Positions 5,995 to 47,188 of a stretch of 64,000 bases of DNA are shown here, one piece after another. Source of the DNA: Candidatus Omnitrophota bacterium. GTDB taxonomy: Bacteria; Omnitrophota; Gorgyraeia; 2-01-FULL-45-10. Both the position numbers and the translations under genes were made by a program. Location of the stretch: positions 487,936 through 551,935 of the forward strand of contig JBAZKH010000001.1 in NCBI GenBank assembly GCA_041650935.1, in the 5' to 3' direction. Position 1 is the first letter of the stretch. The number at the start of each line of letters is the position of its first letter. The notes below the pieces were generated by a model. It was not told the origin of the DNA. It ran no database searches and worked only from the letters and a program-made list of their open reading frames with translations.

Positions 5995-7911
5995 ATGAGC
6001 TCAAACGCCGTTAAAAAGATATTAAGGATTGCCGTCCTGTGCATAATAGCAGTGTCGGCGCTTGCCGTATCGTATTTTCGTCTGCTCGATGATTTCGAAT
6101 CCGGAATCCTCGATCTCAGATTTCTCCTGCGCCCGGCCAAAGCCGCCCCGGCAGACAAAGTCGCGGTCATAGAGATAGGGGACGATAGCATAGCAAAACT
6201 CGGCCGCTTTCCGTTCGATCGGAATTACCACGCGATAGTCGCAACTGCCCTTTCGGAATTCGGCGCTAAGGCGATAGTTTTTGACGTGCTCTTCGGGAGT
6301 CCCCAGGAACACGACGCGGAGCTGGCAGAGGCCCTTAGGCAATCGGGCCGGGTATACCTTCCAACAGCTTTCGATATCGACAACGCGAATAAGTCGAATG
6401 TCATTACTGCCAAAGGTTACGCGAGCGAGTGTCTTCCCGATCTTGCCGCCAAGGCTAAGGGCACGGGTCATATAAACGTAGTGCCGGACCCCGACGGTAA
6501 ATTCAGGCGGGTCCCGTCGTATATAAAATATGATGGTAAGCTATACCCCAACCTCTCTTTCCTGGCCGCCTGCGATTATCTCGGCATTGACAGGAACGAC
6601 GTAAAGCTTTACCCCGGTAAATATATACGGTGCGCCGGCGGGCCGGTCATCCCGCTCGGCGAGAGATCCGAAATGATAATCAATTATTCCGGCAGGTGGG
6701 GTAAAGTATTCAGGCATTACTCATATGTAGATGTTATACAGTCGTATCTGGCGCCGGCAATAGGGCAGAAACCGATATTACAGCCCGATTATTTCAAAGG
6801 CAAAATCTGCATAATAGGCTTGAATACCACCGGAATGGACATCCATCCCAGTCCGTTCGAGCCGGTGTACCCCGGCGTAGGCATACACGCCGAAATACTT
6901 ACCTCGATAATAGACGGGGACTTCATAACGAGGATGTCGAGATGGTTTAACCTGATAGTCCTCATCTTATGTTGTGCCATTGTCTTATTTGTTACCTTTG
7001 CGACAAGGCCGGTCGCCGGGTTTCTGGCGCTTGCCGCATTGATATCAGTATTCACCGGGCTGTGCCTGGGCCTGTTCGATATCTACGGCATATGGCTCGA
7101 CGTAGTGTGCCCGATCCTGATAATGATATTGCTATACCTGTCGCTCACGCTCTGTAAGTATATATCCGAGTGGAAGAACAGGTTGAAGTCTGAATATGAG
7201 CTGGGTATGGCCAGGACGATACAGGAGAGCTTCCTGCCGAAGAATGTCCCGGAGGTCCGGGGGGCGGATATAAGAGCTGTAATGTTAACGGCGCGCCAGG
7301 TCGGCGGAGACCTGTATGAGTTCATTGAAATAGACAATGACAGGTTCGGCGTTATGATCGGCGACGTGTCCGGCAAAGGTGTTCCCGCGAGCCTGTTCAT
7401 GGCCATGGTAGTCGGCCAATTCAGATGTCTAAATGCCGTTAACCCCGATCCGCGCGAAACTATTTCGCGGCTGAACTCCAGGCTCGTCCGGGAATCCGCG
7501 TCGAACCTGTTCGTTACCATGCTCTACGCGATATTCGACTTTAAGAACAAGTCCGTCAGATTCGCTAACGGCGGACATCTCCCCATCCTATATATAGGTA
7601 AGGGCCAAAGCGCGGAATTTCTCGATGTGGACGAAGGGATGCCGCTCGGCCTTATGGATGGCGGATATTCGGAAAAGGCGGCGAGCTTTGGGGGTGGAGA
7701 TATCTTTATCTTTTATACGGACGGCGTTACTGAAGCGATGAATTCCCGCCGCGAGATGTATGGTAAGGAGCGGCTTGCCGCGATTGCCGGAAAGTATAAA
7801 GACCTTTCGGCGGAGGAGATCCTGGCAAATATCGAAAAGGATGTGCGGCGCTTCGAGCCGAGATCGAACCAGCACGATGATATAACCGCGATAGTAATCA
7901 AAATTGGCTAA
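5995..7911 (+). CDS. CHASE2 sensor domain-containing PP2C/SpoIIE-type serine phosphatase
   Basis: N-terminal TM, ~300-aa extracytoplasmic CHASE2-like region, TM cluster, then PP2C/SpoIIE motifs (..GGDLYEF..IGDVSGKGVPASL.., ..FYTDGVTEA..). Confidence 0.75.
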   Translation: MSSNAVKKILRIAVLCIIAVSALAVSYFRLLDDFESGILDLRFLLRPAKAAPADKVAVIEIGDDSIAKLGRFPFDRNYHAIVATALSEFGAKAIVFDVLFGSPQEHDAELAEALRQSGRVYLPTAFDIDNANKSNVITAKGYASECLPDLAAKAKGTGHINVVPDPDGKFRRVPSYIKYDGKLYPNLSFLAACDYLGIDRNDVKLYPGKYIRCAGGPVIPLGERSEMIINYSGRWGKVFRHYSYVDVIQSYLAPAIGQKPILQPDYFKGKICIIGLNTTGMDIHPSPFEPVYPGVGIHAEILTSIIDGDFITRMSRWFNLIVLILCCAIVLFVTFATRPVAGFLALAALISVFTGLCLGLFDIYGIWLDVVCPILIMILLYLSLTLCKYISEWKNRLKSEYELGMARTIQESFLPKNVPEVRGADIRAVMLTARQVGGDLYEFIEIDNDRFGVMIGDVSGKGVPASLFMAMVVGQFRCLNAVNPDPRETISRLNSRLVRESASNLFVTMLYAIFDFKNKSVRFANGGHLPILYIGKGQSAEFLDVDEGMPLGLMDGGYSEKAASFGGGDIFIFYTDGVTEAMNSRREMYGKERLAAIAGKYKDLSAEEILANIEKDVRRFEPRSNQHDDITAIVIKIG

Positions 7912-7999: not shown

Positions 8000-8014
8000 T
8001 AAGGAATATATAAA

Positions 8015-8602
8015 ATGTCAGACTTTTTAAAGCTTACCAAATCGGATTTACGGCGGCGAGTGCTTTTATATTTCTTTACTAACCCCGATGAGGATTTGTA
8101 TCTGCGGGAAATAGCGGATATTTTGAAGATAGACCCTGGCAATCTTTCCCGGGAGTTAGAACGATTGAGAAAAGAAGGAATTTTTAATTCTAGGGAAAGG
8201 GGCAATCAAAAATATTTCGCACTCAATAAGAGACATCCTTTGTACGGAGAGCTCAGATCCGTTGTTTTTAAAACAATAGGCATAGAAGGTTGGCTTAAGA
8301 AAATCATTGGTGGCATAAAAAAGATAGAGATTGCCGCGATATACGGGTCTTTTGCTTCGGGGCATGAAAATTCGAAAAGCGATATAGATATTTTAATTAT
8401 AGGGGATCCTGATCAAGACGACCTGATGGAAAAGATTGAAAAGGTAGAAAAAGATGTGGCGAGAGAAATAAATTATAATATTTATTCACTAGATGATTTT
8501 TCCGAAAGAGTTAAGAAAAAAGACTCTTTTATCCGGAATATCCTTAAAGGACCGAAAATAATTTTGAAAGGGAGGTTAAATGAAATTCAAAGACTTAATT
8601 AG
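8015..8602 (+). CDS. wHTH-fused minimal nucleotidyltransferase (MNT) antitoxin-like protein
   Basis: N-terminal ArsR-like wHTH. Nucleotidyltransferase GS-x10-DxD motif (..YGSFASGHENSKSDIDILI..). Overlaps the downstream HEPN ORF by 23 nt. Confidence 0.7.
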   Translation: MSDFLKLTKSDLRRRVLLYFFTNPDEDLYLREIADILKIDPGNLSRELERLRKEGIFNSRERGNQKYFALNKRHPLYGELRSVVFKTIGIEGWLKKIIGGIKKIEIAAIYGSFASGHENSKSDIDILIIGDPDQDDLMEKIEKVEKDVAREINYNIYSLDDFSERVKKKDSFIRNILKGPKIILKGRLNEIQRLN

Positions 8603-9029
8603 TTCGGGTCAGCTCAAAGAGGAAAGCACTTCCAAACACAAACTGGTCGAATTTCTTACATTTGCCGAAAATGAAATTTCCGCGGCAAAATTTAATCTCG
8701 ACAAATTTTAACTTACGGCTTATAAGTCAGCATATGATGCTTTAATACATGCGGGTAACGCTCTTATAAGATACTACGGGTATCGCCCGACAACGAAATA
8801 TACGCACTCTACGATAACCGAATTTGTTGATAGGATATTCGGTAAGGAGTACGGAGATTTAGTGCGTAGTTTTAAGCGGATGCGACGTAAGAGGCATCCT
8901 TTGCAATATGACGCCATTTTCTCAGAATCCAAAGAAGATGTAAAGGCCGCTATTCTGAAATCAGAGAAATTAGTTAAAGAGATAGAGGGGCATATAAAAA
9001 TATCGCCTGATATGAAGCGTTTATTCTAG
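8580..9029 (+). pseudogene. HEPN-domain toxin-like gene interrupted by an in-frame TAA at 8709-8711
   Basis: Same reading frame before and after the TAA. The downstream part has HEPN-like helices and an R-x4-6-H motif (..RMRRKRHPLQYD..). Confidence 0.5.
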
Positions 9030-9102
9030 AGCTATAATAATCTAGAGAGAAGACGTGGCTAAGAAAAAAAGATATTTTTTCTCTGTAATCGAAGAAGGAA
9101 TA

Positions 9103-9318
9103 ATGAATCCCAAGTATAAAGATTATAGAGGCGGAAGAATAGAGGTTTATGACAGAAAGGATAAAACCGGTTATGCCATTTATGAAGCAAGATTTTTTAT
9201 CCCATCTGAATTTATAAATTCTTTCCGGGAAACGTGGGATTTTAAAGAATCCGACGGAATGCCTTTTATCCACTGGGATTACTCCGAGGTAAAAGATAGA
9301 AAGCGGAGAGCTAAATGA
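9103..9318 (+). CDS. hypothetical small protein (alternative GTG start at 9055)
   Basis: ORF with GAAGGA SD before the ATG at 9103. No recognisable domain. Confidence 0.3.
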   Translation: MNPKYKDYRGGRIEVYDRKDKTGYAIYEARFFIPSEFINSFRETWDFKESDGMPFIHWDYSEVKDRKRRAK

Positions 9319-9412
9319 TGCTGCTAGGTACCGTTTAGTATGTAAGCATGGCTACCAACGCAATTTTCAAGTCGTAATAGATTAGCATAGAGAAGTTCCC
9401 ACGACGATATTG

Positions 9413-9452
9413 TAGCCGACATTTAAATGTCGGCTACGACGGAGAGCTTTTT
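9413..9452 (+). terminator. hairpin GTAGCCGACATTTAAATGTCGGCTAC followed by a T-tract. Terminator-like
   Basis: Perfect 10-bp stem with a TTTAAA loop, then ..GAGCTTTTTTGG. Confidence 0.5.
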
Positions 9453-9553
9453 TGGCTAAACTCTTACTTCAAGTCGTTAAGATTAAATAGGAAAAAGTCA
9501 GCTATTTAGCTTGACTCTTATCCCTGGTATGGTTTACAGTAGTTAACATATAT

Positions 9554-10180
9554 ATGAAGAAGCGACTCATTCCGATATGCCTTGTCTTAATTATCGCTTT
9601 GTGCTGTATATCGATATACGCCTTACATAAATTCTACATCTCCGCAATATCGAAACATTCCAGGGCTATTTCCTCGAAGGCCGCGGCGCTTGAAGAGTTC
9701 GATCTAAGCGAATATTCCGCAGGGGGCGCCTATAAAAAGCTCACGATCCAGGGCAAAAAACTGGGTATTGCGGCTAAAAAACTGGGCATCTTTCGTTTGG
9801 CGCCCGCGAAGGTAACGGAAATACAGGATGTGTCGATCACGTTCTACGAGAAGGGCGCCGTCATTTCCCAGATTACGGCAAAGAAAGCTTTCCTGAATGC
9901 TTCCGTTGAGGATGAGAACCCGATGGCGTCTATTGTGAAAGAGATGGACTTCTCCGGGAAGGTGGATGTGGTTACCGGAGACAGGAGGACGCTTGTCTGC
10001 AGCAGGTTAAAATGGGATAATGGACTGAACCGCATCTTCGCGAGCGGTAATTGTGTTTTGAGATTTGACAATAATGTGATCAGGGCGGATCAAATAGATT
10101 CGGATCTTAAATTACGGGATTTTAATTCTAAAAATGACAGGCTGAAGAGACTGCGGGCATTAAGCCGCGCGGTCATGTAA
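9554..10180 (+). CDS. LptC-like (OstA/LptC-fold) membrane-anchored periplasmic protein
   Basis: N-terminal TM. C-terminal beta-jellyroll-like segment resembling LptC (..DFSGKVDVVTGDRRTLVCSRLKWDNGLNRIFASGNCVL..). Confidence 0.4.
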   Translation: MKKRLIPICLVLIIALCCISIYALHKFYISAISKHSRAISSKAAALEEFDLSEYSAGGAYKKLTIQGKKLGIAAKKLGIFRLAPAKVTEIQDVSITFYEKGAVISQITAKKAFLNASVEDENPMASIVKEMDFSGKVDVVTGDRRTLVCSRLKWDNGLNRIFASGNCVLRFDNNVIRADQIDSDLKLRDFNSKNDRLKRLRALSRAVM

Positions 10181-10200: not shown

Positions 10201-13200
10201 ATGTTCAGGTCATCGTATTTTGTTAAGGCTGCGGCAATTGTTCTGCTTATATTGGGATCCCTGTCTTTCCCGGATTCGGTTTTTGCGGGTATTGCCGAAG
10301 GTAAGAATCTTCTTGCGGATGATATGGACATCGTCGGCGCGCACGCACAATTCCACGCGGCGCTTGAGGCTAACCCCGGCGGGCAATGCGAAAATTTCTG
10401 GCACGCGGTTACGGCGATCTTCTCAAACGGCGCGCTAAAGACAAAACTGCGAGACCTCAAGATATTCGATGGCAGCGACAGATTGGCGATATTTGACAGC
10501 GAAGGAGATTTGAATTACGTTGCCGACGCGGATGTCGACAATATTATAATCGACGATACCGGCCTTACCTATACCAGCCCTGCCAACTGGATAACGGTGC
10601 CAAGGACGGAAACGAACCATCCGTATAATGATAGCTTTATAGTAAATAGCGTTGGTTCCGGGACCGCTACATGGACTCCGAATGTTTTGACGCCGGGATA
10701 TTATAAGGTCCTGGCATGGATACCTTCAGACTCCGCGAATACCGGGGATGCGAAATATTCGGTGGGAGGTAATCCTGTCGTTTCAGTAAATCAAAAAGGA
10801 GGCGGGGGTGGATGGTGGGTCTCGCTGGGAGAATATGATCTTGCGGCCGGGTCCGTCAATATAACGCTGTCGGCTGATGGCTGCGCGGGACGCGTGATAG
10901 CCGATGCCGTAAAACTGGAATATATGGGCGCCATCAGGAACGACACAGAAGCCGGTTTTAGCGGTGCATGGATAGCGGAGACGGACAGTAATAAGGCGTT
11001 TAGACGTGATTATAAATGGCATGCGGCGGGTTCGGGCTCAACCGCTACATGGACATTTAATGGTGTCGATACGGCAAAGAAGTACCTGGTCTATGCAAGG
11101 TGGCCCCGCATAAGTGAAGGCGCGGCCCCTAAAGTCCAGTATGTCATGAGCACTGACGGCAGTCCGACTACCGTAACGGCAAGCCAGAGCGAAAATGCCA
11201 ATGGATGGTGCTGTCTCGGCATGTTCCAGTTTTCAGGCGCTATAGCCACAGTAACCCTTAACTCCAGCGCCGACGGAATAGTAGCCGCGGATGCCGTAAA
11301 GATCGCGCCCGCCAGGCCGTACCCGGATTTAACCCAGGCCCAGGACATGCTCAATAACAGCGCGACCGGCATAATGACCCAGATAGACGAAGCGCTCGCT
11401 AACCTTTCCAAGATAAATGATACAACAAAAGATTTTTCCGACTCCATAGTTTTGGGGGGACAAACGATTACGCTCGATTACGGTGACGCTATGGCTATTG
11501 AAGCGGCCCTCTATTTTTTAAAGGCCATGGCAAAGATAAATGCCGCATATGATATGAACAATATGAATATGCAGTCTCTGGTATTTAATCAAGGCTGTGT
11601 GCTTGACACGCCCCTATCTTTCCTTAATAGTTATATACAGCTCTTCACGCTCCGCGCCGGCGCGGGCGGTTTTCTTTCCGATGCGAAGACCGCGCTCTTG
11701 AACGCGATCGATTCTTACATGCTCGCATCCCCCTTTATACTGAACAGGGGTGAGGATGGCTTAAACCATATGGTTAGTTTTTACGAATCGTATCCCGACA
11801 GGGATGATTACCTTACAGAGGAAGCGTGGAACGGGGCCGTGGCGAAATGGCAGGAAGATAAAGATACGGCATTGGAATGCGAGCAGTATGTGCGTGAAAA
11901 GATGACAGACGTAAAGAATAACCTTACCGCCGCCAACCATCCTTATATCACGATCCCTGCCGAGATACCGGGCGCGGAGGGTGGCCCCGGCATAGAGATC
12001 AAGGTCGACCTGTATGAATTCTTCACGAATCCCAAGAATGTCCGGGACAATATAAATGAGCTTTTGGATAACGGCGTTGCGCCTAACATAGTCTTGGATG
12101 ACCTGCCCGACCCTACAGTGGGTGAGGTATTACCGACACTTGGACCGCGTGACTGGAACTTCCTCTTTGGTTACGGGCCGGTCTTTAAAGACGATCCTCA
12201 GGTTATCTGGGATGCGGACGCGCCTTCGGTTAAGCTTGAATGGGACGCTTCCAGCGACGAACACAAAGACCATATAGTGAAATACGAAATATACCGGTCG
12301 ACTTCAGCCAACATGGCGGGCGCATCTCCGGTAACTACGATCACGGACCCGTTGCTCACAAGCTATGTCGATACTTCTATTAGCGATTCCGAAGATAAAT
12401 ATTACTACCGTGTCCATACTTTTTACAATTTCGGCGGCAGCCACACGGCCGAGACCTATACCGAGGCAGGCAAGGCTATCCTCAGGATATATGTCGATGC
12501 GAATAGCGCGGTTACCGAAGAGGAAGGCACAAGGACCAAGCCTTATAAAGACCTGGGCTATGCGACTTCGGAAGGCGCCGGGAACGGCACAAAGGTCCGC
12601 GTTGCGGCAGGGACGTATCAGGAGAATGCCAGCTCGCTTAAGTTGTGGCGCGCGTCCAGCATTGTCCTCGAGGGCGGATATGAGGGGGTCAATTGGACGA
12701 GAGATATTGCCTCGAACGAGACGATCATCGATTCCCATGGATTGAATCCATCTAATAATCCTCTCGAGCTTTGGAATAAGGGTAATGTAACGATCGATGG
12801 CTTAACGGTAATTGGGCAGGTTACGGCTAATTCCTGGAGCTCGTCTATTTATGTTGGAAATTCTTCTTCTGTTATTATCAGGAATTGCAAAATACGCGGC
12901 GCAAATACCGGCATACAGGTGTATTGTTCGACCGGAGTGCTTATCGAAAACTGCTTTATAGAAGGAAGCGGGTCGATCACGAACGGCGGCCCGGGTATAG
13001 ACGTTTTTGGCTGGGATCAGGTCTCTTCTGTAATCGTCAAGGGATGCCATGTCACTAATTGGTCAAATGGAGGCATCGCGTTTAATTCCGGTAACAATTG
13101 GCAGGGTGCTCTCACGGTTTTTAATAGTGTTATTGACAAAAATAACAAAACAGGTATCAACTGCTGGGGTAATAGTAGTACGGGTGATGTCAGTATACAG

Positions 13201-14313
13201 AACAACACTATTGTAGGGAATAGAGAAACCGGAGGCATATGTTTCAACTCTCTCAGGAGTATAGTTATTAAAAACAACGTAATTGCCCACAATAACGGTG
13301 GTATAAATTTGACAAGTATTGGTATTTATGGGTGTAACACAACCGGCACATTACAGGTTGTTGCCAATAATGATTCTTATGGTCACTTTAATGGAGATTT
13401 CATTGGCTGTGCAGCTTCTGGGTATAACGGCAACATAAATGCCGACCCGCTCTTTATCGACGAGGCGAATGGGAATTACCGCCTCGGACAGATAGCTTCC
13501 GGACAGGCAGGTAATTCGCCGTGTGTCGACACGGGCAGTGATACGTCTGCAAGCCTCGGCCTGTCAGGCATGACCACGCGCAGCGACGGTGTGGTCGATA
13601 GCGGTATTGTGGATATGGGCTATCATTACGCTTCGACCATGGCGCCAATATATAAGGAAGAGTTCATAGTTGACTTCGGTGATGTATACGGCATCTGGGT
13701 ACGGTACAACGACTCAACCTGGACCAAGCTCCATGACTTAAGTCCGAAATCAATGGTAACCGGCGACATCGACGGTAACGGTAAAGACGATATCATTATC
13801 GACTTCGGAACCGAATACGGCATCTGGATAAAGTACAATGATTCTGGCTGGCAGCAGCTTCACAGCTTGAGCTCGGAGTCAATGGTAACCGGCGACATCG
13901 ACGGTAACGGTAAAGACGATATCATTATCGACTTCGGAACCGAATACGGCATCTGGGTACGGTACAACGACTCAACCTGGACCAAGCTCCATGACTTAAG
14001 TCCGAAATCAATGGTAACCGGCGACATCGACGGTAACGGTAAAGACGATATCATTATCGACTTCGGAACCGAATACGGCATCTGGATAAAGTACAATGAT
14101 TCTGGCTGGCAGCAGCTTCACAGCTTGAGCTCGGAGTCAATGGTAACCGGCGACATCGACGGTAACGGTAAAGACGATATCATTATCGACTTCGGAACCG
14201 AATACGGCATCTGGGTACGGTACAACGACTCAACCTGGACCAAGCTCCATGACTTAAGTCCGAAATCAATGGTAACCGGCGAGCTGGATAACGATAGCGG
14301 CGGAATTGTATAA
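10201..14313 (+). CDS. giant secreted multidomain protein. Order: signal peptide, two golvesin-C-like carbohydrate-binding-type domains, helical region, FN3-like domain, right-handed parallel beta-helix, then six FG-GAP/VCBS-like repeats
   Basis: Signal peptide. Two ..GxYxV..W.P.....A.Y.V........Q..GGG.WV.LG...L..G....L.....G.V.ADAVK.. domains. FN3-like ..VKLEWDASSD..YEIYRS... PbH1-type NxxIxG repeats (..NCKIRGANTGIQV..NCFIEGSG..). C-terminal DxDGNGKDDIIIDFG..YGIW..YN repeats. Confidence 0.7.
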   Translation: MFRSSYFVKAAAIVLLILGSLSFPDSVFAGIAEGKNLLADDMDIVGAHAQFHAALEANPGGQCENFWHAVTAIFSNGALKTKLRDLKIFDGSDRLAIFDSEGDLNYVADADVDNIIIDDTGLTYTSPANWITVPRTETNHPYNDSFIVNSVGSGTATWTPNVLTPGYYKVLAWIPSDSANTGDAKYSVGGNPVVSVNQKGGGGGWWVSLGEYDLAAGSVNITLSADGCAGRVIADAVKLEYMGAIRNDTEAGFSGAWIAETDSNKAFRRDYKWHAAGSGSTATWTFNGVDTAKKYLVYARWPRISEGAAPKVQYVMSTDGSPTTVTASQSENANGWCCLGMFQFSGAIATVTLNSSADGIVAADAVKIAPARPYPDLTQAQDMLNNSATGIMTQIDEALANLSKINDTTKDFSDSIVLGGQTITLDYGDAMAIEAALYFLKAMAKINAAYDMNNMNMQSLVFNQGCVLDTPLSFLNSYIQLFTLRAGAGGFLSDAKTALLNAIDSYMLASPFILNRGEDGLNHMVSFYESYPDRDDYLTEEAWNGAVAKWQEDKDTALECEQYVREKMTDVKNNLTAANHPYITIPAEIPGAEGGPGIEIKVDLYEFFTNPKNVRDNINELLDNGVAPNIVLDDLPDPTVGEVLPTLGPRDWNFLFGYGPVFKDDPQVIWDADAPSVKLEWDASSDEHKDHIVKYEIYRSTSANMAGASPVTTITDPLLTSYVDTSISDSEDKYYYRVHTFYNFGGSHTAETYTEAGKAILRIYVDANSAVTEEEGTRTKPYKDLGYATSEGAGNGTKVRVAAGTYQENASSLKLWRASSIVLEGGYEGVNWTRDIASNETIIDSHGLNPSNNPLELWNKGNVTIDGLTVIGQVTANSWSSSIYVGNSSSVIIRNCKIRGANTGIQVYCSTGVLIENCFIEGSGSITNGGPGIDVFGWDQVSSVIVKGCHVTNWSNGGIAFNSGNNWQGALTVFNSVIDKNNKTGINCWGNSSTGDVSIQNNTIVGNRETGGICFNSLRSIVIKNNVIAHNNGGINLTSIGIYGCNTTGTLQVVANNDSYGHFNGDFIGCAASGYNGNINADPLFIDEANGNYRLGQIASGQAGNSPCVDTGSDTSASLGLSGMTTRSDGVVDSGIVDMGYHYASTMAPIYKEEFIVDFGDVYGIWVRYNDSTWTKLHDLSPKSMVTGDIDGNGKDDIIIDFGTEYGIWIKYNDSGWQQLHSLSSESMVTGDIDGNGKDDIIIDFGTEYGIWVRYNDSTWTKLHDLSPKSMVTGDIDGNGKDDIIIDFGTEYGIWIKYNDSGWQQLHSLSSESMVTGDIDGNGKDDIIIDFGTEYGIWVRYNDSTWTKLHDLSPKSMVTGELDNDSGGIV
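13691..14280 (+). repeat. perfect tandem repeat, 258-bp period (two 43-aa propeller blades per unit), ~2.3 copies, inside CDS 10201..14313
   Basis: Copies beginning at 13691, 13949 and 14207 read identically base for base. Confidence 0.85.
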
Positions 14314-14333
14314 ACGCAATTTAATGCAGTGGG

Positions 14334-14359
14334 GCAGGTTTAAACCTGCCCCACTTCTG
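14334..14359 (+). repeat. palindromic element GTGGGGCAGG-TTTAAA-CCTGCCCCAC. Member of the dispersed TTTAAA-loop hairpin family. Terminator-like
   Basis: Perfect 10-bp stem. Lies 21 nt after the stop of 10201..14313. Confidence 0.6.
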
Positions 14360-14409
14360 TCATTGCGAGGGCACGAAGTGTCCGAAGCGATCTAAAATCG
14401 GGAGGGCGC

Positions 14410-17100
14410 ATGGAAAGACGCATACAAGTAATATGCGCATTAATTTTCAGCACTCTTATATTCATGGGGTTATGCGGTATTGCATTCGCGAATGGTACTA
14501 TAAGCGGTTCGGTCACGAGAAGCTCTGACGGCCAAGTAATTTTTGGCATCCATGTTTACGCCGACCCCATTACCGGTGGTAACAGTATCGTGACACAGAC
14601 CAACGATGCCGGAGGTTTTAACCTATCGCTTCCTGCCGGTTCTTACAGGATAAGATCCGGCGGCGAGATCATTGCAGAGATATCATATGTACAGGAATAT
14701 TATGATGAGCAGACTGGTTGGGGTACGGCAAATATGGTGACCGTATCGGATGGCCAGACTCTCTACGACGTAAACTTTACGCTCGATATCGGCGGTGTGA
14801 TATCGGGAGTCGTTTACAAAGAAGATGGCGTGACACCGCTTGCAGATGAGTACATAGGCGCGCGTTCCACCGACGGTGCCAAATTTGCGGGCACCCGGAC
14901 AGGTTCGAGCGGCGCGTATATCATGGCCGCGCCGGCAGGCGAGTTTAAAGTTCGGGCAGGCGGCAATACCGAATATGCGCCGAAATGGTACGCCCAGAAA
15001 AATTCCTTCTATGATGCTGATACGGTGACAGTATTGCAAGGCGAGACCGCCGCGAATATTGATTTTACTTTAGATGTGGGCGCGACTGTTGCCGGAGTGG
15101 TGTATGATAATCTGGGCGCGCCGAAAGGGAGCGTGACCGTAATTTATAACGATTATGCGTTATCCCGCATATATCCGTATTCGAGATCCGCTGTTACCGA
15201 TCCTAATGGAACGTTTATTCTGCAGGGACTCGCGGGAGGCATCTGCAAAATATCCGCTGAGCCCATAGTAAACTCCGGGCTAGCTTTCAGCGGGAAGTAC
15301 ATTTATTTGAATCCCGGGGAGAACAAGGTAGGCATGGATTTTTCGCTTTCGCAGGGATACCGTATCTGGGGATATGTAAAGAATGCCAAAGGCGCGGGTC
15401 TTTACAATGTCAGAGTAAAAGCCGGCACTGCCGATGAGCCGACTGTTGCCGAGGCAGTGACCGACCTTAACGGCCAATACGAGATGGCGCTTGCGCCGTC
15501 CATATACAGTCTCAGAATTAGCGATGACTGCGGTAGCGTAGCTCTCCCAAAAATAAAGACAGTGTCCGGCCAAGCTAAAGTGCAGGATTTTATCGCCTAT
15601 GATAACAGTAATGCGGAAACTTTGGAAGGGGTTGTTACAAACAGCGGTAGTGGCGTGACTTCGTCGTTCATGCTTTCCGCCTACAAAGCCGGTGTTGCGG
15701 CAAACATCAGTCCGTTCAATTACGGTCTTTATGCAAACGGCTGCTTCAGTGAGAACCTGATAGCCGAGGGAGGGGAGTTCAATATTTTTGTTGCGCCTCG
15801 CTCCAGCTACGATCTTTGTTTTCTTGCGATAAATATTGCCTCGCGCGGCATGGTCTCCTGTACGGTTAGAGATATCCGTTATAAGTGCGCGTCGAATTCA
15901 GAAGGCAACGGTTTTAATTATGATTTTACCGGAGGCGAAGTGGCGGGAAAGGTTACTTATGACCACAAGCCTCTTCTCATGGCCAAAGTATTCCTTTTGG
16001 ATTCATCCGAGCTGATAGCTGGTGTTGCCGAAACGGACGAGAACGGCACTTATAATATTTATAATGTCGCTCCGGGTGATTATATCCTGGAGGCAAAGAC
16101 TCTTGACGGCGAAGTAAGCCAAATGATATCAGCCGCTGTTGTGGATGAAGAGAGCACGGCAGCCAACCTTAAGTTCGAATCGGCATCGCAGATAATTACC
16201 GCGGACCTCGATGGTAACGGTAAGGATGAGATCATTATAAATTTCGGCACTCAATATGGCATCTGGATATACTACAATAATTCAACATGGGCAAAGCTCC
16301 ACGACTTAAGCCCCGAGTCAGTAACAGCGGGCGACCTCGACGCAAGCGGTAAAGACGACATTATTATCGACTTCGGGCCGCAGTATGGTATATGGATATA
16401 TTATAATAACGAAACTTGGCGGCAGCTTCACACGATAAGCCCGAAATCCATGATTACGAGCGACCTTGATGGTAACGGAAAGGCGGAAATAATCGTCGAC
16501 TTTGGTTCGCAATACGGCATATGGATATATTACAATAACGAGACATGGCAAAAACTGCATGATTTGAACGCCAAGTTCATGACCGTCGGCGATACTGATG
16601 GTGACGGTGTTAAAGATGATATAATAGTCGACTTCGGCAATCCATACGGCATCTGGATATATTACAGTAATGATGAAATATGGGAGCATCTGCATTCTGT
16701 AAGTTCGGATTCCATCGTGGTCAAAGATATAAACTATGACGGTGTGGACGATATAATTGTCGACTTTGGCCGCCCTTACGGTATATGGATATATTATGAC
16801 TGTTATTTCTGGGACCATCTTCATGATCTTAGCCCCGAGACCATGGCCGTGAATAGTTTCGGCGATGTTATGATCGATTTCGGCCCTCAATACGGCATGT
16901 GGGCATATTACGCTCACGGCGACTATGCGAACAACTGGTTTCATCTGGCAGGAGCTACTCCCCAGTCCATATCGGTCGGTAATATCGACGGGGATGAAGA
17001 CGGCTGGGATGATATCATTATCGATTTCGGCAGCGGGTATGGCGTATGGGTTTATTATAACGACTCTATTTGGGTGCAATTGCATTATTTAAGTCCGTAG
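14410..17100 (+). CDS. secreted protein with multiple carboxypeptidase-regulatory-like (CarbopepD_reg/Cna-B-like) beta-sandwich repeats and ~9 divergent FG-GAP/VCBS-like propeller repeats
   Basis: Signal peptide. Repeated G.ISG.V......G......V.....G.......TD..G.F.L..L..G.Y.I modules. C-terminal D.DG.GKD.II.DFG..YGIWIYYN..W..LH..S repeats related to the preceding gene. Confidence 0.65.
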   Translation: MERRIQVICALIFSTLIFMGLCGIAFANGTISGSVTRSSDGQVIFGIHVYADPITGGNSIVTQTNDAGGFNLSLPAGSYRIRSGGEIIAEISYVQEYYDEQTGWGTANMVTVSDGQTLYDVNFTLDIGGVISGVVYKEDGVTPLADEYIGARSTDGAKFAGTRTGSSGAYIMAAPAGEFKVRAGGNTEYAPKWYAQKNSFYDADTVTVLQGETAANIDFTLDVGATVAGVVYDNLGAPKGSVTVIYNDYALSRIYPYSRSAVTDPNGTFILQGLAGGICKISAEPIVNSGLAFSGKYIYLNPGENKVGMDFSLSQGYRIWGYVKNAKGAGLYNVRVKAGTADEPTVAEAVTDLNGQYEMALAPSIYSLRISDDCGSVALPKIKTVSGQAKVQDFIAYDNSNAETLEGVVTNSGSGVTSSFMLSAYKAGVAANISPFNYGLYANGCFSENLIAEGGEFNIFVAPRSSYDLCFLAINIASRGMVSCTVRDIRYKCASNSEGNGFNYDFTGGEVAGKVTYDHKPLLMAKVFLLDSSELIAGVAETDENGTYNIYNVAPGDYILEAKTLDGEVSQMISAAVVDEESTAANLKFESASQIITADLDGNGKDEIIINFGTQYGIWIYYNNSTWAKLHDLSPESVTAGDLDASGKDDIIIDFGPQYGIWIYYNNETWRQLHTISPKSMITSDLDGNGKAEIIVDFGSQYGIWIYYNNETWQKLHDLNAKFMTVGDTDGDGVKDDIIVDFGNPYGIWIYYSNDEIWEHLHSVSSDSIVVKDINYDGVDDIIVDFGRPYGIWIYYDCYFWDHLHDLSPETMAVNSFGDVMIDFGPQYGMWAYYAHGDYANNWFHLAGATPQSISVGNIDGDEDGWDDIIIDFGSGYGVWVYYNDSIWVQLHYLSP

Positions 17101-17113
17101 GTAAAAAGGAAAT

Positions 17114-17689
17114 ATGAGAAAAAATATATTTTTGTTAAGTGTGATTTTGGTAATAGTCGTAATTTCTGTTGCGCTTGCCGTTATGGTTATATTTTCCGCG
17201 ACAAAACCGGAGAAACATCCCGCGCCGGTAAAAGCTGTGGTACCGATTTCTGTAAAACCGGAATTACCAGGCCGGCCGGTTGAAAATGGAGCGGTGACAA
17301 ACGCGTCAGTAGTGTCAGCCACGAAATCCGAAGAGAAGGTCCCGGAATTGCCAATGCCGGTAACGGAAAAACCACTGCAGGAAGAGGGGGCTAAAGTTAC
17401 TTCCGGCGCACCGCCTGATCAGGCCACTGTCATAGGCCTGCAGGTACTGCCTGTAGATTCTGCCGGAAAGTCAACAGCAGAGCTTCCGGCATTTATTCCG
17501 ACCACAAACACGACCGGCCCTGTACCCATAGTGCCAACGACGTCAAAGACACAGGATATTACCTCATTCGTCCCTAAACCCAGCGTGACCGGCCCCGTAG
17601 CGAAGGAAGGTGGGGCGGAACACAAGGATTTACCGCCATTTACTCCCGTCACAAGCCCCACCGGCCCTGTCAGGAAAGAAAACCAATAG
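17114..17689 (+). CDS. N-terminally anchored Pro/Thr-rich low-complexity protein
   Basis: One N-terminal TM helix, then repetitive PTTxTTGPV / PxTxPTGPV segments. Confidence 0.45.
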   Translation: MRKNIFLLSVILVIVVISVALAVMVIFSATKPEKHPAPVKAVVPISVKPELPGRPVENGAVTNASVVSATKSEEKVPELPMPVTEKPLQEEGAKVTSGAPPDQATVIGLQVLPVDSAGKSTAELPAFIPTTNTTGPVPIVPTTSKTQDITSFVPKPSVTGPVAKEGGAEHKDLPPFTPVTSPTGPVRKENQ

Positions 17690-29163: not shown

Positions 29164-30294
29164 AATGAGATATATCTGGGAGCGCAAAAACTGGTTTGAC
29201 TTTAAATACGATGAAGCTCTTTTGCTCAAACCCTTAAGCAGGCTGCGGATCCTGCAAGGTAAGCTGTTAGGGCGCGTCGCGTCCCTTAATATCAAGCTTG
29301 AAACCGAGGCGCAGGGAGCTATCCTGGTCGAGGAAGCCGTTCGGACCGCGGAGATCGAAGGACAAAGGCTTAACCGGGATGCGGTTCGTTCATCGGTGGC
29401 TGGCAGGCTCGGCATGCCGCGCGGCATCGGGGCGCATATAGGAACATTGACGGCCTTGTGGATATATTGCTGGATGCGGTGCGTTTTCATGATAAACCTT
29501 TGACATTGGAACGGCTTAACGGCTGGCATGCGGCGCTGTTTCCTTCAGGCTATTCCGGGTTAAGAAAGATCAGGACCGGGAAAATGCGCGGCGATGAGCC
29601 CATGCAGATAGTGTCCGGGCCTATCGTAAAAGAAAAGGTGCATTTTGAAGCGTTGCCGAAAGACCGCCTCTATGAAGAGATGCGGTCTTTTTTGAAATGG
29701 TGGAATTCATCACCCGGCCGCATGGATGGGATCTTACGCGCGGCGACAGCCCATTTGCGTTTTGTGACAATGCACCCCTACGAGGATGGTAACGGCCGGT
29801 TGGCCCGCGCAATAACCGATATGGCCTTGGCCCAGGATGAGAAATTAAAAGTCAGGTTCTACAGCATCTCTTCCGAGATAATGCGTTCCAGGAACGAGTA
29901 TTACAAAATTCTGGAAGACGTACAAAGGCACAGAGTCGACGTGACCGGGTGGTATCTGTGGTTTATTAAATGCGTTACCGCGTCTATTGAACATTCCAGG
30001 GATATTATTGCCGATGTATTGATGCGTATCGACTTCTGGAATCAGCATGCCGAGACCCAGTTAAATGAGCGCCAGAAGAAAGTCTTGAACCGCATACTGG
30101 AGGCGGGGGCAGGGAATTTTACGGGTGGTTTAACGACGCGTAAATATGTGAGTATCGCAAAGGTAAGCCGCGCCACCGCGTTCCGTGAAATAGCGGATAT
30201 GCTTGATAAGAAGGTATTGCGGCAACTCTCCGGCAAGGGCCGCAGTGTCCATTATGATCTGGTAAAGCCGCGTTCAGGCGATGGAGGTGTATGA
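29164..30294 (+). pseudogene. Fic/Doc-family protein (HPFxDGNGR motif) with C-terminal wHTH. The ORF is split by a +1 frameshift near 29425-29440
   Basis: Fic N-terminal ..EAVRTAEIEGQRL.. lies in one frame (29164..29503). ..HPYEDGNGRLARA.. and the C-terminal wHTH lie in the next frame (29458..30294). AGGAGG SD before the ATG at 29164. Confidence 0.6.
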
Positions 30295-31459
30295 AAAAGC
30301 TTCACAGAACATTATCGGACGACTTTTGGACGAGAAGAAGATGAGCGCCCTCAGGCGGGTCTTTATTAATGTGATATTGAGCGTAGCCTTTGCCGCAGTA
30401 TCTTTTATTATACTCACGCCGCTGCTGGCGGAGGTCCAATTCTATTCCGCAGAGAAACTAATAACCAAATACCTATGGAAGGATGCCGAAGATAGGCTCA
30501 TCCTGGCCATAAAGACAGACCCTCTCAACTCTAAATATCCCGCGAGACTCGGAGAATTCTTATTTACTCAAAGCGCTTATAAAGATAATCCTCTTCCGTT
30601 GCTCAAAAAAGCCCAGGGGTATTATGAGCGCGCGGCCCGGCTGAATCCCAGGTGTGCCGAATATTTTACGAGGTTGGGACGGATATGTGTCAGCTTGTTT
30701 ATTGGTACTCAGGATTCCGGACGTAGGGGAGGTTTAAACCTCCCCTACAGTGATGCGGAGAGCGGGAGGGGGTATATCGACAACGCGTTTGAGAATTTCA
30801 AAAAAGCGCTGGCGGACGATCCGAATGGATTCAATGCTGCCTATGGGACGGGATACTCAGGTTTAGCCGCCTGGAAATATCTTAATGAAGACGAGCGGGC
30901 ATTCGTGATAGACAGATTAAAATATAGCCTGGAACAGAAGCCGTGGTACTCCGTATATATATATCCGCAGGTTTTGCGTATGACTGAGAGCCCGGAATTA
31001 TTAGGGATGATAATTCCGGAGATCGAAACGAAACGATGGGTTGACTCCAAAATTATCGATAAGCTTAAAAATGGTATGCGGGAAACGCCCGCCGCCATAA
31101 TTCCAAGATCGGGCTGGCAGGGTACGGTGCCGGGAGGCGGCAGCGTTTATGAGAACGGTAATATGTGTTGGTCCGGTACAATATACGGCGCTATGTTATT
31201 TCCGGCGGGCGACGCGTTGATCAAGGTGGAGGCGCGGGGAAGCCCGTCCGACGGCGTCTATCCCTATATACTCGTATTTCTGGACGGTAAAATAATAGGC
31301 AGCGTCTACGTCGATAGCGGTGACGTTAAAATATATTCTTTCGCCGCCAAGACGGATGGAGGCGTAAAAGTTTTGAGCATTACTTTTACCAATGACGGCG
31401 GTAATAAAAAAGAAGACAGGAACCTGTATATCGGTAACGCGCGGGTTGAACAAAAATGA
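30281..31459 (+). CDS. membrane-anchored TPR-like protein with a C-terminal beta-sandwich (CBM-like) domain. An in-frame palindromic element lies inside
   Basis: N-terminal TM. TPR-like helical pairs. C-terminal ..YILVFLDGKIIGSVYVD...VKVLSITFTNDGG... The true start is possibly 30341. Confidence 0.45.
   Translation: MEVYEKASQNIIGRLLDEKKMSALRRVFINVILSVAFAAVSFIILTPLLAEVQFYSAEKLITKYLWKDAEDRLILAIKTDPLNSKYPARLGEFLFTQSAYKDNPLPLLKKAQGYYERAARLNPRCAEYFTRLGRICVSLFIGTQDSGRRGGLNLPYSDAESGRGYIDNAFENFKKALADDPNGFNAAYGTGYSGLAAWKYLNEDERAFVIDRLKYSLEQKPWYSVYIYPQVLRMTESPELLGMIIPEIETKRWVDSKIIDKLKNGMRETPAAIIPRSGWQGTVPGGGSVYENGNMCWSGTIYGAMLFPAGDALIKVEARGSPSDGVYPYILVFLDGKIIGSVYVDSGDVKIYSFAAKTDGGVKVLSITFTNDGGNKKEDRNLYIGNARVEQK
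30721..30748 (+). repeat. palindromic element ACGTAGGGGAGG-TTTAAA-CCTCCCCTAC inside CDS 30281..31459, in frame (encodes ..RRGGLNLPY..)
   Basis: Identical to 28575..28602. The ORF stays open through it. Confidence 0.85.
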
Positions 31460-40649: not shown

Positions 40650-41657
40650 CTATTTGAGCTCGGATAGATACGGCAGAAGATTGTATTTCTTTAGCTTGTT
40701 ATAGAGGGTAGTTCTATTAACGCCTAATCTGGTAGCGGCCTTCTTCTTGTTTCCCCCTACTTCTTTCAGGACGTTCAGGATATAGACTTTTTCAGGTTCC
40801 TGCATGACATCTTTGAGGGATTTTAGTATATTGGCGGGTGCTGTGCTATCATGTAGTTTGCAGCGGGTCATTTTGACCGCCTCCAGGAGCATCTCTGGAA
40901 GATCGTCTTTATCTATTACGTCATCGGTATCGAGGATTACCGCGCGTTCGATTATATTTTCCAGCTCCCGTATGTTGCCCGGCCAGTTGTAGTCTATGAG
41001 TATTTGCCGCGTCTCCTCCGTAATTCCCCTTATTTTTTTCGAATTCTCTTTCGAATAAAGGTTCACGAAATGGTCCAGGAGGTGCGCTAAATCTTCTTTA
41101 TGTTCCCTGAGAGACGGCAGTTTGATAGATATTACATTGAGCCTGTAATAAAGGTCTTCCCTGAACCTTTTTTCGGCAACAGCCTTTTCGAGGTCCTGGT
41201 TGGTAGAAGCTACTATGCGGACGTCTACCTTAATGGTCTTGTGGTCGCCGACACGCTCGAACTCTTTCTCCTGCAGGACCCTTAAAAGCTTTACCTGCAT
41301 GTCCATCGAAAATGAATCTATATCATCGAGCAGGATCGTTCCGTTATCGCCCAGTTCGAAACGGCCCTTACGATCGCCTATGGCTCCGGTAAATGATCCT
41401 TTTGTGTGGCCGAATAGTTCGCTTTCGATTATCTCTTTTGGGAGCGCGCCGCAGGATATCTCTATGAAGGGTTTGTTTTTTCTTTTTTTATCGGCGTGAT
41501 GTATGGCGCGCGCGACCATTCTCTTGCCGGTCCCGCTTTCGCCTCTTAATAGGATCGTGGCTTTCGAATCGGATATGCGCTCGATCATGGAATACATGTT
41601 CTTCATGATAGAACTGCGGCCTACCAAGCCGTGATATGTTTGGGTAGAATTTGTCAT
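40650..41657 (-). CDS. sigma54-dependent transcriptional activator. AAA+ sigma54-interaction domain plus C-terminal Fis-type HTH only, with no receiver or sensor domain
   Basis: Walker A ..GESGTGKRMVARAIH... GAFTGA-type loop ..ESELFGHTKGSFTGA... Walker B ..GTILLDDID... C-terminal HTH ..AATRLGVNRTTLYNKL.. Confidence 0.9.
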   Translation of the reverse strand: MTNSTQTYHGLVGRSSIMKNMYSMIERISDSKATILLRGESGTGKRMVARAIHHADKKRKNKPFIEISCGALPKEIIESELFGHTKGSFTGAIGDRKGRFELGDNGTILLDDIDSFSMDMQVKLLRVLQEKEFERVGDHKTIKVDVRIVASTNQDLEKAVAEKRFREDLYYRLNVISIKLPSLREHKEDLAHLLDHFVNLYSKENSKKIRGITEETRQILIDYNWPGNIRELENIIERAVILDTDDVIDKDDLPEMLLEAVKMTRCKLHDSTAPANILKSLKDVMQEPEKVYILNVLKEVGGNKKKAATRLGVNRTTLYNKLKKYNLLPYLSELK

Positions 41658-41798: not shown

Positions 41799-42845
41799 CT
41801 ATTTATTGGAGTGGTGACTCAGGGGGAGTAACGCGATCCCTGTCAGTCTTACGAGCTCTTTTACGATATCGATATCTTTTTCGGTGAAATCTGTCTTATT
41901 GCGGACCACGTTGAGGTTGATAACGCCATAAACCTCGTGAGTGTTTGCTTTCGAAAAGGGTATGACCATGGAAGACCGTATATAATTCCTGTTTAATTTG
42001 CCGGAAAGTTCGGCTGAGTCCTTATCCTTGGGCAGGATGATAGGGGTGGCGGTCTTGGCGGCCACACCGGCTACCCCCTCCCCCATCTTTACACCGCTCG
42101 AGCGGTCTATTATGCTCTTATCGAGTTCGGCGGCGACTTTTATCTTCAATATCCGGGTATTTTTGTCCATTATCATTACAGAGCCGGAGTCTGCATTGAG
42201 CGCGAGCACACACGAATGGAGGAGCGATTTCAGTATCTTCTCTTCGTAATAAGAGGAGAAGAGCGGATCCACCTTCACGACCTCAGGCGCTATCTCGCCC
42301 AGACGTTTCTTGTGGTAACCGGCTTGTGCCATATGCGTGAATGTGTCGTTTATAAGAGCGATTACCGAGCGGGCTTTGCCATATGAGAATACATTTATAT
42401 CCATAATGGCATTTGCAAGTTCTTCGGGTTTGATGCCGGGATCATTAAGCTCTACGGCGCACTGGAGCGCTTTTCCCCTGGATTTAAGCATGACGGGCCC
42501 GGCTATTATGTAGGCTACTATCCTGTGGCTGACGGCCCTGATGGGAATAGCGAATGAGCTGAGCCCAAGAGAACATTTTAGAGCCTGTTCTATGTCTATC
42601 GATTGATTGAGGTTGGCTATACCGGATGCCGTTGTTATGCAGTTGCGGCAGGCGGTTTTAGACTTCTGCGTTCTGGGCAGTATCTCCGCACAGAGCCGCG
42701 TAGAGCGGCTGGGCGCAGTCAATAGCTCGCCATGAGCGCTTATGGTCTTGAGAGTGATTTCGAGGACATTTGCGAATGAATCCTGGATACCCTGCCACTC
42801 TCCGAGATTTACTATCTCCCCGAGTTGAAATTCTTTTTTAAACAT
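41799..42845 (-). CDS. PocR sensory domain plus GAF domain protein (sensor half of a split sigma54 activator)
   Basis: PocR-like Cys pattern (..RLCAEIL......CRNC.. / ..LKCSLGLSSFAIPI..). GAF-like ..MIMDKNTRILKIKVAAEL... Same reading frame as 40650..41657. Confidence 0.65.
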   Translation of the reverse strand: MFKKEFQLGEIVNLGEWQGIQDSFANVLEITLKTISAHGELLTAPSRSTRLCAEILPRTQKSKTACRNCITTASGIANLNQSIDIEQALKCSLGLSSFAIPIRAVSHRIVAYIIAGPVMLKSRGKALQCAVELNDPGIKPEELANAIMDINVFSYGKARSVIALINDTFTHMAQAGYHKKRLGEIAPEVVKVDPLFSSYYEEKILKSLLHSCVLALNADSGSVMIMDKNTRILKIKVAAELDKSIIDRSSGVKMGEGVAGVAAKTATPIILPKDKDSAELSGKLNRNYIRSSMVIPFSKANTHEVYGVINLNVVRNKTDFTEKDIDIVKELVRLTGIALLPLSHHSNK

Positions 42846-44848: not shown

Positions 44849-45493
44849 CTATGCTTTGAACTTTTTGATGATTGTCCTGCCTGCCATTCCAACCAGACCA
44901 AGACCTAATAGAGCCATACTTGCCGGCTCTGGCGCTGGTCCAGGAAGGGACTCGTTCTGACTGGTGCCGCCTGCTGTTATGTTGCCACTTACCCATGTTG
45001 GCGACTCAAGAGCGGTAAACCATAGAACATAGCTTGTGCTGCCTCCTGGGATAGCGTTGGCTCCGCTAAAATCCCAATAGGCGCAATTTAAGCCCGTACC
45101 GTAATACCCGTTAATCGGGGCGACTGTGCCAGACAAGTCGTAGGTTGTAGTAAACAAGTCGTCGAGGTTGAATGAGTTAGTGAAGGCTCCGTCTGTAATA
45201 TGGCCGCCGTTCTCATTCAAAACCCCAAACATAGTAAGCGCCTGGTCATTGGATAAACCGTCGACGTTCTTTATCTGATAAAGATACGTATAGTCGGTCT
45301 TTGTCCCGAGCGGATTGGTGGCATTACCTGGTTCATAGACAGCCCACCAGACATCCGCGTTAAAATACCGCGTTGTCCCTATGTATTTCTGGAAGTTTGT
45401 GCAACCATCGATTAACGGTGTTGCTTCAGCGTTTAACGTCGTAACGACGCATGCCGCGAAGAGCACCATTACAATTAATGCAATTTTCTTCAT
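44849..45493 (-). CDS. PEP-CTERM sorting-domain secreted protein
   Basis: Signal peptide. C-terminal ..PAPEPASMALLGLGLVGMAGRTIIKKFKA (PEP motif, TM, basic tail). Confidence 0.8.
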   Translation of the reverse strand: MKKIALIVMVLFAACVVTTLNAEATPLIDGCTNFQKYIGTTRYFNADVWWAVYEPGNATNPLGTKTDYTYLYQIKNVDGLSNDQALTMFGVLNENGGHITDGAFTNSFNLDDLFTTTYDLSGTVAPINGYYGTGLNCAYWDFSGANAIPGGSTSYVLWFTALESPTWVSGNITAGGTSQNESLPGPAPEPASMALLGLGLVGMAGRTIIKKFKA

Positions 45494-45513
45494 TTATTCA
45501 CCCCCTTCCTTTG

Positions 45514-45570
45514 TAGACTGTAGACCATAGACCTTTAATGCTTTGGTCTTCGGTCTCTGGTCTTCGGTCT
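45514..45570. repeat. GGTCT/TAGAC-word low-complexity repeat block (TAGACTGTAGACCATAGACC ... GGTCTTCGGTCTCTGGTCTTCGGTCT) between the two PEP-CTERM genes
   Basis: Read directly. A related motif recurs at 60565..60600 inside a CDS. Confidence 0.6.
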
Positions 45571-46162: not shown

Positions 46163-46189
46163 TTTTATAGCCTCCTTTTCATATTTTTC

Positions 46190-47068: not shown

Positions 47069-47188
47069 ATACTTCTATATAAGCATCATTCGTGCCAAGT
47101 CATGAGCGCGAGCAAAAATATTTTATTTTTTGATGATTATAAATATTTGTGAATCAATGGGTTACGGCTGGATATTTTTGCTAATTAG

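Follow-up and report, generated by a model that had tools for sequence, protein, structure and literature searches.

Two secreted propeller proteins in an exopolysaccharide locus of a Candidatus Omnitrophota bacterium are candidate matrix-binding and matrix-processing factors

In Vibrio cholerae, matrix proteins are encoded next to the machinery that makes their polymer: the rbm cluster lies between the exopolysaccharide (EPS) clusters vps-I and vps-II. RbmB is a beta-helix lyase acting on Vibrio polysaccharide (VPS) (PMC11637428, PMC12993940), Bap1 and RbmC contain FG-GAP repeats (PMC3161981), and the propeller of these two proteins binds VPS (bioRxiv 10.64898/2026.08.03.742583). In Pantoea stewartii, WceF is a non-phage beta-helix glycanase encoded in a Wzx/Wzy-dependent EPS cluster, with a suggested role in trimming the polymer of its own cell (PMC7949094). 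Here we describe a locus of similar organization in a metagenome-assembled genome (MAG) of a Candidatus Omnitrophota bacterium (GenBank assembly GCA_041650935.1, contig JBAZKH010000001.1, positions 487,936 to 551,935 of the forward strand). The whole 64,000-nucleotide stretch is referred to below as the window, and positions are counted from its first nucleotide. Like the Vibrio proteins, the products of two adjacent genes, G1 (1370 aa) and G2 (896 aa), are encoded among EPS genes; they are flanked by a 208-aa gene (G0) and a 191-aa gene (G3). On balance, we favor the reading that G1 and G2 are secreted EPS-associated matrix proteins that act on the polymer of the surrounding locus.

The window is essentially one ∼60-kb Wzx/Wzy/Wza/Wzc EPS locus with an exosortase system. 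G1 and G2 thus combine the traits of the RbmB/Bap1/RbmC type of protein: they lie in an EPS locus, are predicted to be secreted, and contain a beta-helix or an FG-GAP propeller. G2 is identical to the NCBI protein WC522_02240 (Candidatus Omnitrophota), and all full-length relatives of G1 that we found are metagenomic, those named by NCBI coming from Omnitrophota or Omnitrophica MAGs. A first-pass annotation of the window, made by a model from the letters alone, had proposed that the two genes form a surface polysaccharide-binding or -processing system. The proposal fits the EPS context well, while its processing part, a lyase activity, remains at the level of a candidate function for the reasons given below.

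Both open reading frames (ORFs) are found exactly where they had been placed, G1 at 10201..14313 and G2 at 14410..17100, and, as all features of the G0–G3 unit, they lie on the plus strand. G1 starts with a putative signal peptide (aa 1–29, ending in SVFA|G; 10201..10287), recognized by sequence inspection and hydrophobicity, which is followed by helices (aa 30–110; 10288..10530) that make up the first part of a TPR-like scaffold split by an insertion of carbohydrate-binding modules (CBMs). The insertion consists of two tandem CBM6/35/36-like Golvesin_C domains (∼aa 111–243 and 244–372; 10531..11316). The first-pass annotation had pointed to both of them, and Pfam detects two copies of PF25275 with a wide reserve (E 2.4e-38, 131.6 bits versus a cutoff of 31.6). 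The copies share 35% identity (E 9e-9), which indicates an internal duplication. Since Golvesin_C-class CBMs bind glycans in the Bacteroides lectins Cbeg4 and Cbeg5 (PMC9166713), the modules of G1 may, by analogy, bind carbohydrate as well. The TPR-like helical domain proper (aa 371–658; 11311..12174) has no Pfam family. Structures were predicted for the helical domain and the beta-helix of G1. An FN3-like beta-sandwich (aa 659–758; 12175..12474), also expected from the first reading, has no match in Pfam and is seen in the AlphaFold model as an all-beta unit with a predicted local distance difference test score (pLDDT) >90 over aa 659–768; Foldseek aligns it with the FN3 domains 1wk0 and 5l2h. 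It is followed by a right-handed parallel beta-helix (aa 759–1146; 12475..13638) and by C-terminal FG-GAP-type blades, five 43-aa repeats with a closing ELDNDS loop (13639..14310). The predicted C-terminal propeller of G1 is supported by two Pfam families, FG-GAP (PF01839; E 1e-11, 44.9 bits versus a cutoff of 22.1, four stretches) and FG-GAP_3 (PF13517; 27.7 bits, just above the cutoff of 26.9). In NCBIfam, G1 finds only NosD, far below threshold.

G2 is simpler. After its putative signal peptide comes a stalk of CarboxypepD_reg beta-sandwiches (∼aa 28–590; 14491..16179), for which five or six copies had been suggested and five stretches are detected by Pfam (PF13620, E 2.2e-32; also PF13715, E 7.7e-14). 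The C-terminal part (aa 591–896; 16180..17097) is a propeller region of the FG-GAP type made of seven DFG..G.W repeats spaced by 43 aa. On their own these blades stay below threshold (FG-GAP_3 24.8 bits with a cutoff of 26.9, FG-GAP 14.7 bits with a cutoff of 22.1). In a partial G1 homolog (P0002, 78% identical) the beta-helix is followed by a CarboxypepD_reg-type domain, not by propeller blades, which hints at shuffling between G1-type and G2-type modules. We also considered that the C-terminal tail of this protein is homologous to the G2 stalk, which would make it a G1–G2 fusion, and rejected the idea: the BLASTP comparison was not significant, and the sole support is a precomputed CarboxypepD_reg match on P0002.

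The propeller is what joins the two proteins. Their repeat regions are 60% identical over 213 aa (E 7e-94), in agreement with the first-pass view that both genes carry the same repeat, and the DFG..YGIW motif occurs nowhere else in the 64-kb window. The cation loops are DxDxDG-like, reading DIDGNGKDD, DLDGNGKDE or DTDGDGVKDD; four of the five G1 repeats have one (the first does not, and the ELDNDS loop comes after the last), as do six of the seven in G2. The same cation loop characterizes Pfam FG-GAP and FG-GAP_3 of the VCBS-integrin-alpha superfamily, whose gathering cutoffs G1 passes. Compared with the superfamily, the blades of G1 and G2 are compact (43 aa) and bear the signature IIIDFG-x3-GIW-x5-W-x2-LH, and the PF01839 match spans the loop only (profile positions 4–20 of 37). 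An exhaustive HMMER search with the G2 repeat region among 1.84 billion representatives returned 3061 at E<1e-3 and 1366 at E<1e-10; the subfamily is mostly metagenomic and amounts to hundreds of 50%-identity clusters. FG-GAP_3 was matched in 32 of 50 sampled members and FG-GAP in 23. Because of the Pfam matches and the wide distribution of the subfamily, the repeat is best classed by sequence as a compact subfamily of the FG-GAP/VCBS superfamily and not as a new family, so the earlier impression that it belongs to no named family has to be dropped. Few subfamily members are named, all of them MAG proteins, and a genome scan with the G2 propeller gave three loci only. Among 152 member proteins seven repeats were counted in 27 and more in only four; four and five repeats are slightly commoner, it should be noted that the regular expression misses some repeats and that many metagenome proteins are truncated. 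Propellers of the VCBS/FG-GAP kind are typically carbohydrate-recognition modules (PMC9218822).

The beta-helix of G1 is matched by Pfam Beta_helix (E 1e-13, aa 840–1004), with weak additional matches to NosD and DUF5123. This Beta_helix/PbH1-type profile match, together with a predicted three-sheet right-handed helix, places the domain in the pectin-lyase-like superfamily. In Foldseek the top ranks are taken by Pel3 and PelI, pectate lyases that also combine FN3 with a beta-helix; carbohydrate-active enzymes give the highest scores and the largest number of fold matches, and many further matches are tailspike depolymerases, with identities of 9–19% throughout. Outside the G1 orthologs, the closest relative of the FN3+beta-helix region is P0064, which aligns with full coverage at 43% identity. 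Its label is that of a DPANN archaeon, Candidatus Pacearchaeota, and this indicates either cross-domain transfer or mis-binning.

Put together, these features suggest the following scheme. G1 and G2 would be exported by Sec and act outside the cell on the EPS made by the surrounding 60-kb locus. The propeller of both proteins, with its Ca2+-type loops (DxDGNGKDD), and the Golvesin_C modules of G1 would bind glycan and keep the proteins attached to the polymer or to the cell surface. G2, in which an Ig-like CarboxypepD_reg stalk and a seven-blade propeller are accompanied by no enzyme-like domain, might be an adhesin or cross-linker, as Bap1 and RbmC are on Vibrio polysaccharide. The beta-helix of G1 could cleave or remodel the polymer in the manner of RbmB and WceF, for chain-length control, release or dispersal. 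Finally, the membrane-anchored G0 and G3 are conserved partners that may tether or export G1.

Several observations weigh against this scheme. Non-enzymatic beta-helices score almost as well in the fold comparison as the enzymes do (PfbA adhesin 26.8, NosD 26.0, and Vag8 too). No polysaccharide lyase (PL), glycoside hydrolase (GH) or epimerase family in Pfam matches the beta-helix, and its homologs are labelled only Beta_helix, NosD or DUF1565. In an alignment of nine orthologs the number of rungs varies, and the central rungs contain no Asp, Glu, Lys, Arg or His that is invariant. As to the propeller, no solved relative can be found by sequence: the only match in PDB to a profile of 12 sequences, aldos-2-ulose dehydratase, was not significant. 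S8 proteases, Calx-beta, cohesin and RHS/YD-like proteins all carry members of its subfamily, which may be a general anchor or target-binding module that is not specific for EPS. Also, G2 is absent from a syntenic locus of another Omnitrophota MAG (L001), and for this reason we regard it as an accessory partner.

Further searches for enzyme signatures in G1 gave the same picture. Pfam reports no Pec_lyase, Pectate_lyase, Glyco_hydro_28 or Chondroitinase_B in it at E≤0.1, and phmmer against PDB found nothing for G1 at E≤1 and nothing useful for G2. The charged and aromatic residues that are invariant in the nine orthologs fall in the early beta-helix region (Y764–D866) or at its C-terminal end (D1138); K897, the Lys of the NCKI rung, is kept in eight of the nine. 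The pectate-lyase-like beta-helix of the first-pass annotation therefore stands at the level of fold and superfamily, and the family-level part of the name does not. Because PL and GH families give no match, fold-match identity is 9–19% and no charged residue of the central rungs is invariant, we call the domain a candidate for glycan cleavage or modification, and both catalysis and membership in an enzyme family are inferred. The same lack of conserved catalytic-type residues would be expected if G1 were a purely non-enzymatic adhesin or structural protein, its beta-helix being a rigid spacer or binding surface as in Streptococcus pneumoniae PfbA and autotransporter passengers, and G1 with G2 forming a coat or adhesive layer. 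The richness of G1 in binding-type domains (TPR-like, CBM-like, FN3, propeller) fits this possibility too. Yet the fold matches are led by carbohydrate-active enzymes, the FN3+beta-helix layout mirrors that of the lyases PelI and Pel3, CBM-like modules are usually found together with enzymes, and poor conservation could equally be explained by a fast-evolving specificity such as that of tailspike depolymerases. We thus find a non-enzymatic G1 clearly unlikely.

The breadth of the propeller subfamily leads to another explanation, in which the propeller is a general module for surface anchoring or display, comparable to SLH or the C-terminal domains of the type IX secretion system (T9SS), and EPS is only the anchor. 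G1 and G2 would then be displayed tools for foreign targets, be it host or prey envelopes or environmental polysaccharides used as food. In favor of it, the subfamily is large even at high stringency (578 representatives at E<1e-30), in 77 of the 152 proteins analyzed by regular expression, about half of them, 60 aa or fewer separate the last repeat from the C-terminus, and the propeller is fused to diverse secreted domains (Peptidase_S8, Calx-beta, CarboxypepD_reg, fn3, PPC, PKD and cohesin in the sampled members) as well as to an RHS/YD-like giant. Golvesin_C, too, is found on RHS proteins and multihaem cytochromes, and dependence on a host or a predatory way of life has been suggested for some Omnitrophota. 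On the other hand, the propeller sits near the N-terminus in several giants, unlike a sorting tag, and it has no linked enzyme dedicated to sorting. The tight and repeated linkage of G1 homologs to EPS genes speaks for a function connected with the polymer of the cell itself. It should also be noted that general anchoring overlaps our favored reading more than it excludes it. Taken as a separate explanation, we consider it possible, though unlikely. The giant mentioned above, from Omnitrophota MAG JAPLMG010000021.1 (L005, 1585–6963), has >1793 aa. The same seven-blade propeller lies near its N-terminus, and RHS/YD-like repeats and a beta-helix-like tail rich in Gly come after it; judging from these domains, toxin-like giants use the propeller also.

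Each of the four proteins G0–G3 has one N-terminal hydrophobic segment according to hydrophobicity analysis. The segments of G1 and G2 are short and resemble cleaved signal peptides, with the ends VFA|G and AFA|N, respectively, which agrees with the signal peptides assigned to both in the first-pass annotation; G0 and G3 have long ones of the membrane-anchor kind. No sorting signal had been seen by eye at the C-termini of G1 and G2, and the Pfam search did not reveal any either: PEP-CTERM (PF07589) and T9SS Por_Secre_tail (PF18962) have no match in the two proteins. They also have no C-terminal hydrophobic segment and, by inspection, no lipobox. Two PEP-CTERM proteins of the same window (44849–45493 and 45569–46162) served as positive controls, and Por_Secre_tail is carried by some distant beta-helix homologs.

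G0 (9554..10180) ends 20 bp upstream of G1. Its similarity to LptC, noticed already in the first pass, is weak: the protein is alike in size, has an N-terminal anchor and matches NCBIfam TIGR04409 (LptC_YrbK) over nearly full length, but it reaches only 29.9 bits (E 3.5e-7) where the cutoff is 38, and 17.0 bits (E 0.0047) with Pfam LptC, whose cutoff is 21. Orthologs of G0 score 14.0–14.2 bits with LptC, and all three are under the curated cutoffs. Furthermore, the annotated ORFs of the window include no Lpt genes (lptA or lptB), and unlike LptC, G0 is linked to the beta-helix giant G1. G3 (17114..17689) starts 13 bp after G2 and is the Pro/Thr-rich anchored protein that had been expected downstream (14% Pro, 10% Thr and 15% Val). 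It has no match in Pfam or NCBIfam and contains three LPxFxPVxSxTGPV-like motifs. While overall identity is low, the motifs (LPxFxxVxNxTGP, PxxxxTGP and LPxFxPVxSxxGPV) are invariant in the G3 sequences of three MAGs (the window, L001 6373–6912 and L004 5520–6155), which have the anchor in common as well, and from this pattern the motifs could be docking peptides.

The order of these genes is conserved. In L001 a 206-aa ortholog of G0 (51% identity, E 2e-74) lies immediately 5′ of a G1 homolog without the Golvesin insert. An ortholog of G3 with 179 aa (32% identity, E 3e-18) lies 3′ of this homolog, and then follow methyltransferases, Wzx, GT2, Wzy, GT4 and WecG. The G0–G1–G3 triad is seen again in L004, with a G0 ortholog of 38% identity upstream, and another contig holds together a 233-aa gene, a G1 homolog (P0003) and a second protein of >749 aa. 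Neither a metagenome scan with the helical domain of G1 nor one with an alignment of G0 found relatives. The tight order G0–G1–(G2)–G3, with spacers of 13–20 bp, could mean that G0–G1–G3 is an envelope-spanning export accessory, G1 being held in the periplasm by the inner-membrane proteins G0 and G3 while its beta-helix modifies the nascent polymer, as in the AlgG/AlgX/AlgK scaffold with its C5-epimerase AlgG. AlgK-type scaffolds have a TPR-like domain, as does G1, and G1 is without a recognized outer-membrane sorting signal. However, a DPHD-type epimerase motif is not evident on inspection of the G1 sequence, extracellular proteins are the typical carriers of CBM-like, FN3 and FG-GAP propeller modules, this very propeller is found on obviously extracellular enzymes, and the LptC similarity of G0 is sub-threshold. 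A periplasmic export accessory is for us very unlikely. A bolder proposal combines two ideas: the 43-aa propeller would be a widespread surface-attachment module by which uncultured bacteria, Omnitrophota included, hang enzymes, adhesins and RHS-type toxins on their own EPS, and the G0–G1–G3 triad would be a new accessory that spans the envelope and links the export of EPS with its trimming, with the TPR-like domain or the propeller of G1 docking on the G3 motifs. We think this proposal distinctly doubtful.

The length of G1 requires a separate comment. The plus-strand region 13686..14282 is a perfect tandem array found by TRF, 2.3 copies of a 258-bp unit (two blades) at 100% identity. An independent ENA assembly of the same organism (made with MEGAHIT; contig L002) is identical on both sides of the array and 516 bp shorter at it, so that its version of G1 (P0001) has 1198 aa and a single blade, and a Logan contig (L003) begins inside the array, at window position 14253. 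Because the three public assemblies disagree at this perfect repeat (five blades, one blade, a contig break), the number of blades in G1, five here, is not established. The ORF of 1370 aa reported in the first pass is present in this assembly, and its annotated length should be treated as provisional. In G1 orthologs we counted seven (P0003), five (P0004) and three (P0005) blades, with arrays at 77–80% DNA identity. In highly repetitive VCBS-type propellers blade number is known to vary between near-identical proteins (PMC9218822).

On the plus strand the G0–G3 unit is preceded by a Wzx-like flippase and then a CHASE2 sensor fused to a SpoIIE/PP2C phosphatase (5995–7911), the latter directly upstream of the unit. 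It is followed, in order, by Wzx, a methyltransferase, an amine-oxidase-like protein, GT2, an acetyltransferase, GT4, GT2, Wzy, GT4 and WecG, and farther on by a TPR+CBM60 protein, a second Wzy_C protein, a priming transferase, an EpsL-like outer-membrane barrel, Wza and Wzc. The minus strand encodes a sigma-54 activator (40650–41657), a PocR-GAF sensor (41799–42845), a complete exosortase module (44849–48791) and about ten more sugar-modifying genes. The module consists of the two small PEP-CTERM proteins mentioned above, the second of which has a C-type lectin domain as well, a second priming transferase of the Bac_transf type (46190–47068), an EpsI-like DUF3485 protein (47330–48082) and the exosortase EpsH (47952–48791). 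The CHASE2-SpoIIE/PP2C protein, the sigma-54 activator and the PocR-GAF sensor are candidate regulators of EPS production. Between positions 8603 and 9553, upstream of G0, there are ∼950 bp without long ORFs, and GC content is 0.396 over 8001–10000 compared with ∼0.50 in G1 and G2. This gap probably contains the regulatory region of the G0–G3 unit; consensus scans of the window for promoters and terminators showed nothing convincing upstream of G0, and Rfam and tRNA scans were likewise uninformative.

A few other genes of the locus deserve mention. The TPR+CBM60 protein (30281–31459) adjoins a Wzy_C/IctB-like membrane protein. CBM60 is a Ca-dependent carbohydrate-binding module, and a CBM60 protein is found at the equivalent position of L001 (15993–16352), so by its domain this protein is a predicted further conserved glycan-binding component of the EPS locus. 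A 665-aa protein on the minus strand (50689–52686) has weak matches to GH127 (beta-L-arabinofuranosidase-like) and to the PcRGLX N-terminal barrel, and is a candidate for a second glycan-cleaving enzyme. It adjoins a papain-like C1 peptidase (49929–50669, minus strand); in L001 a C1 peptidase lies directly 5′ of the LptC-like gene. Genes of the defence or toxin-antitoxin type are dispersed in the locus, namely an HTH gene with an MNT-like nucleotidyltransferase (8015–8602), Fic/DOC (29458–30294) and an AbiEii toxin (48798–49619).

Omnitrophota bacteria are abundant and often very small, they have not been cultured, and to our knowledge next to nothing has been learned about their surface biology. 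The locus described here offers a concrete candidate for the way in which an Omnitrophota cell organizes and remodels its exopolysaccharide. Defining the ligand of the propeller would, in addition, annotate thousands of metagenomic proteins at once.

Neither the domain types of G1 and G2 nor their likely function, the binding and trimming of EPS, is new, and well-studied precedents exist in Vibrio and Pantoea. The relation to each of them is a distant one. WceF is trimeric and tailspike-like, has no CBM, FN3 or propeller, and shows no detectable sequence similarity to G1. PelI and Pel3 (PL3), as well as Pel9A and rhamnogalacturonan lyase (PL9), are 11–16% identical to G1, which has no PL-family match in Pfam and belongs to a context of EPS synthesis, not of pectin utilization; the FN3+beta-helix arrangement of PelI and Pel3 is nevertheless mirrored in it. 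RbmB is only 12–15% identical to G1, without a family-level sequence match. Where Bap1 and RbmC have beta-prism lectin domains G2 has CarboxypepD_reg domains, and the phylum differs. The propeller of Bap1 is reportedly eight-bladed (Kaus et al., 2019), while that of G2 has seven blades with a 43-aa period. What is new is the occurrence of such proteins in Omnitrophota, a phylum without cultured representatives and with no characterized surface biology, and the conserved pairing of G1 with an LptC-like anchor and a motif-bearing anchored protein. New, too, is the architecture itself: in contrast to the Vibrio proteins, G1 fuses the beta-helix and the propeller in one chain and joins to them a TPR-like scaffold with inserted Golvesin_C CBMs and an FN3 module.

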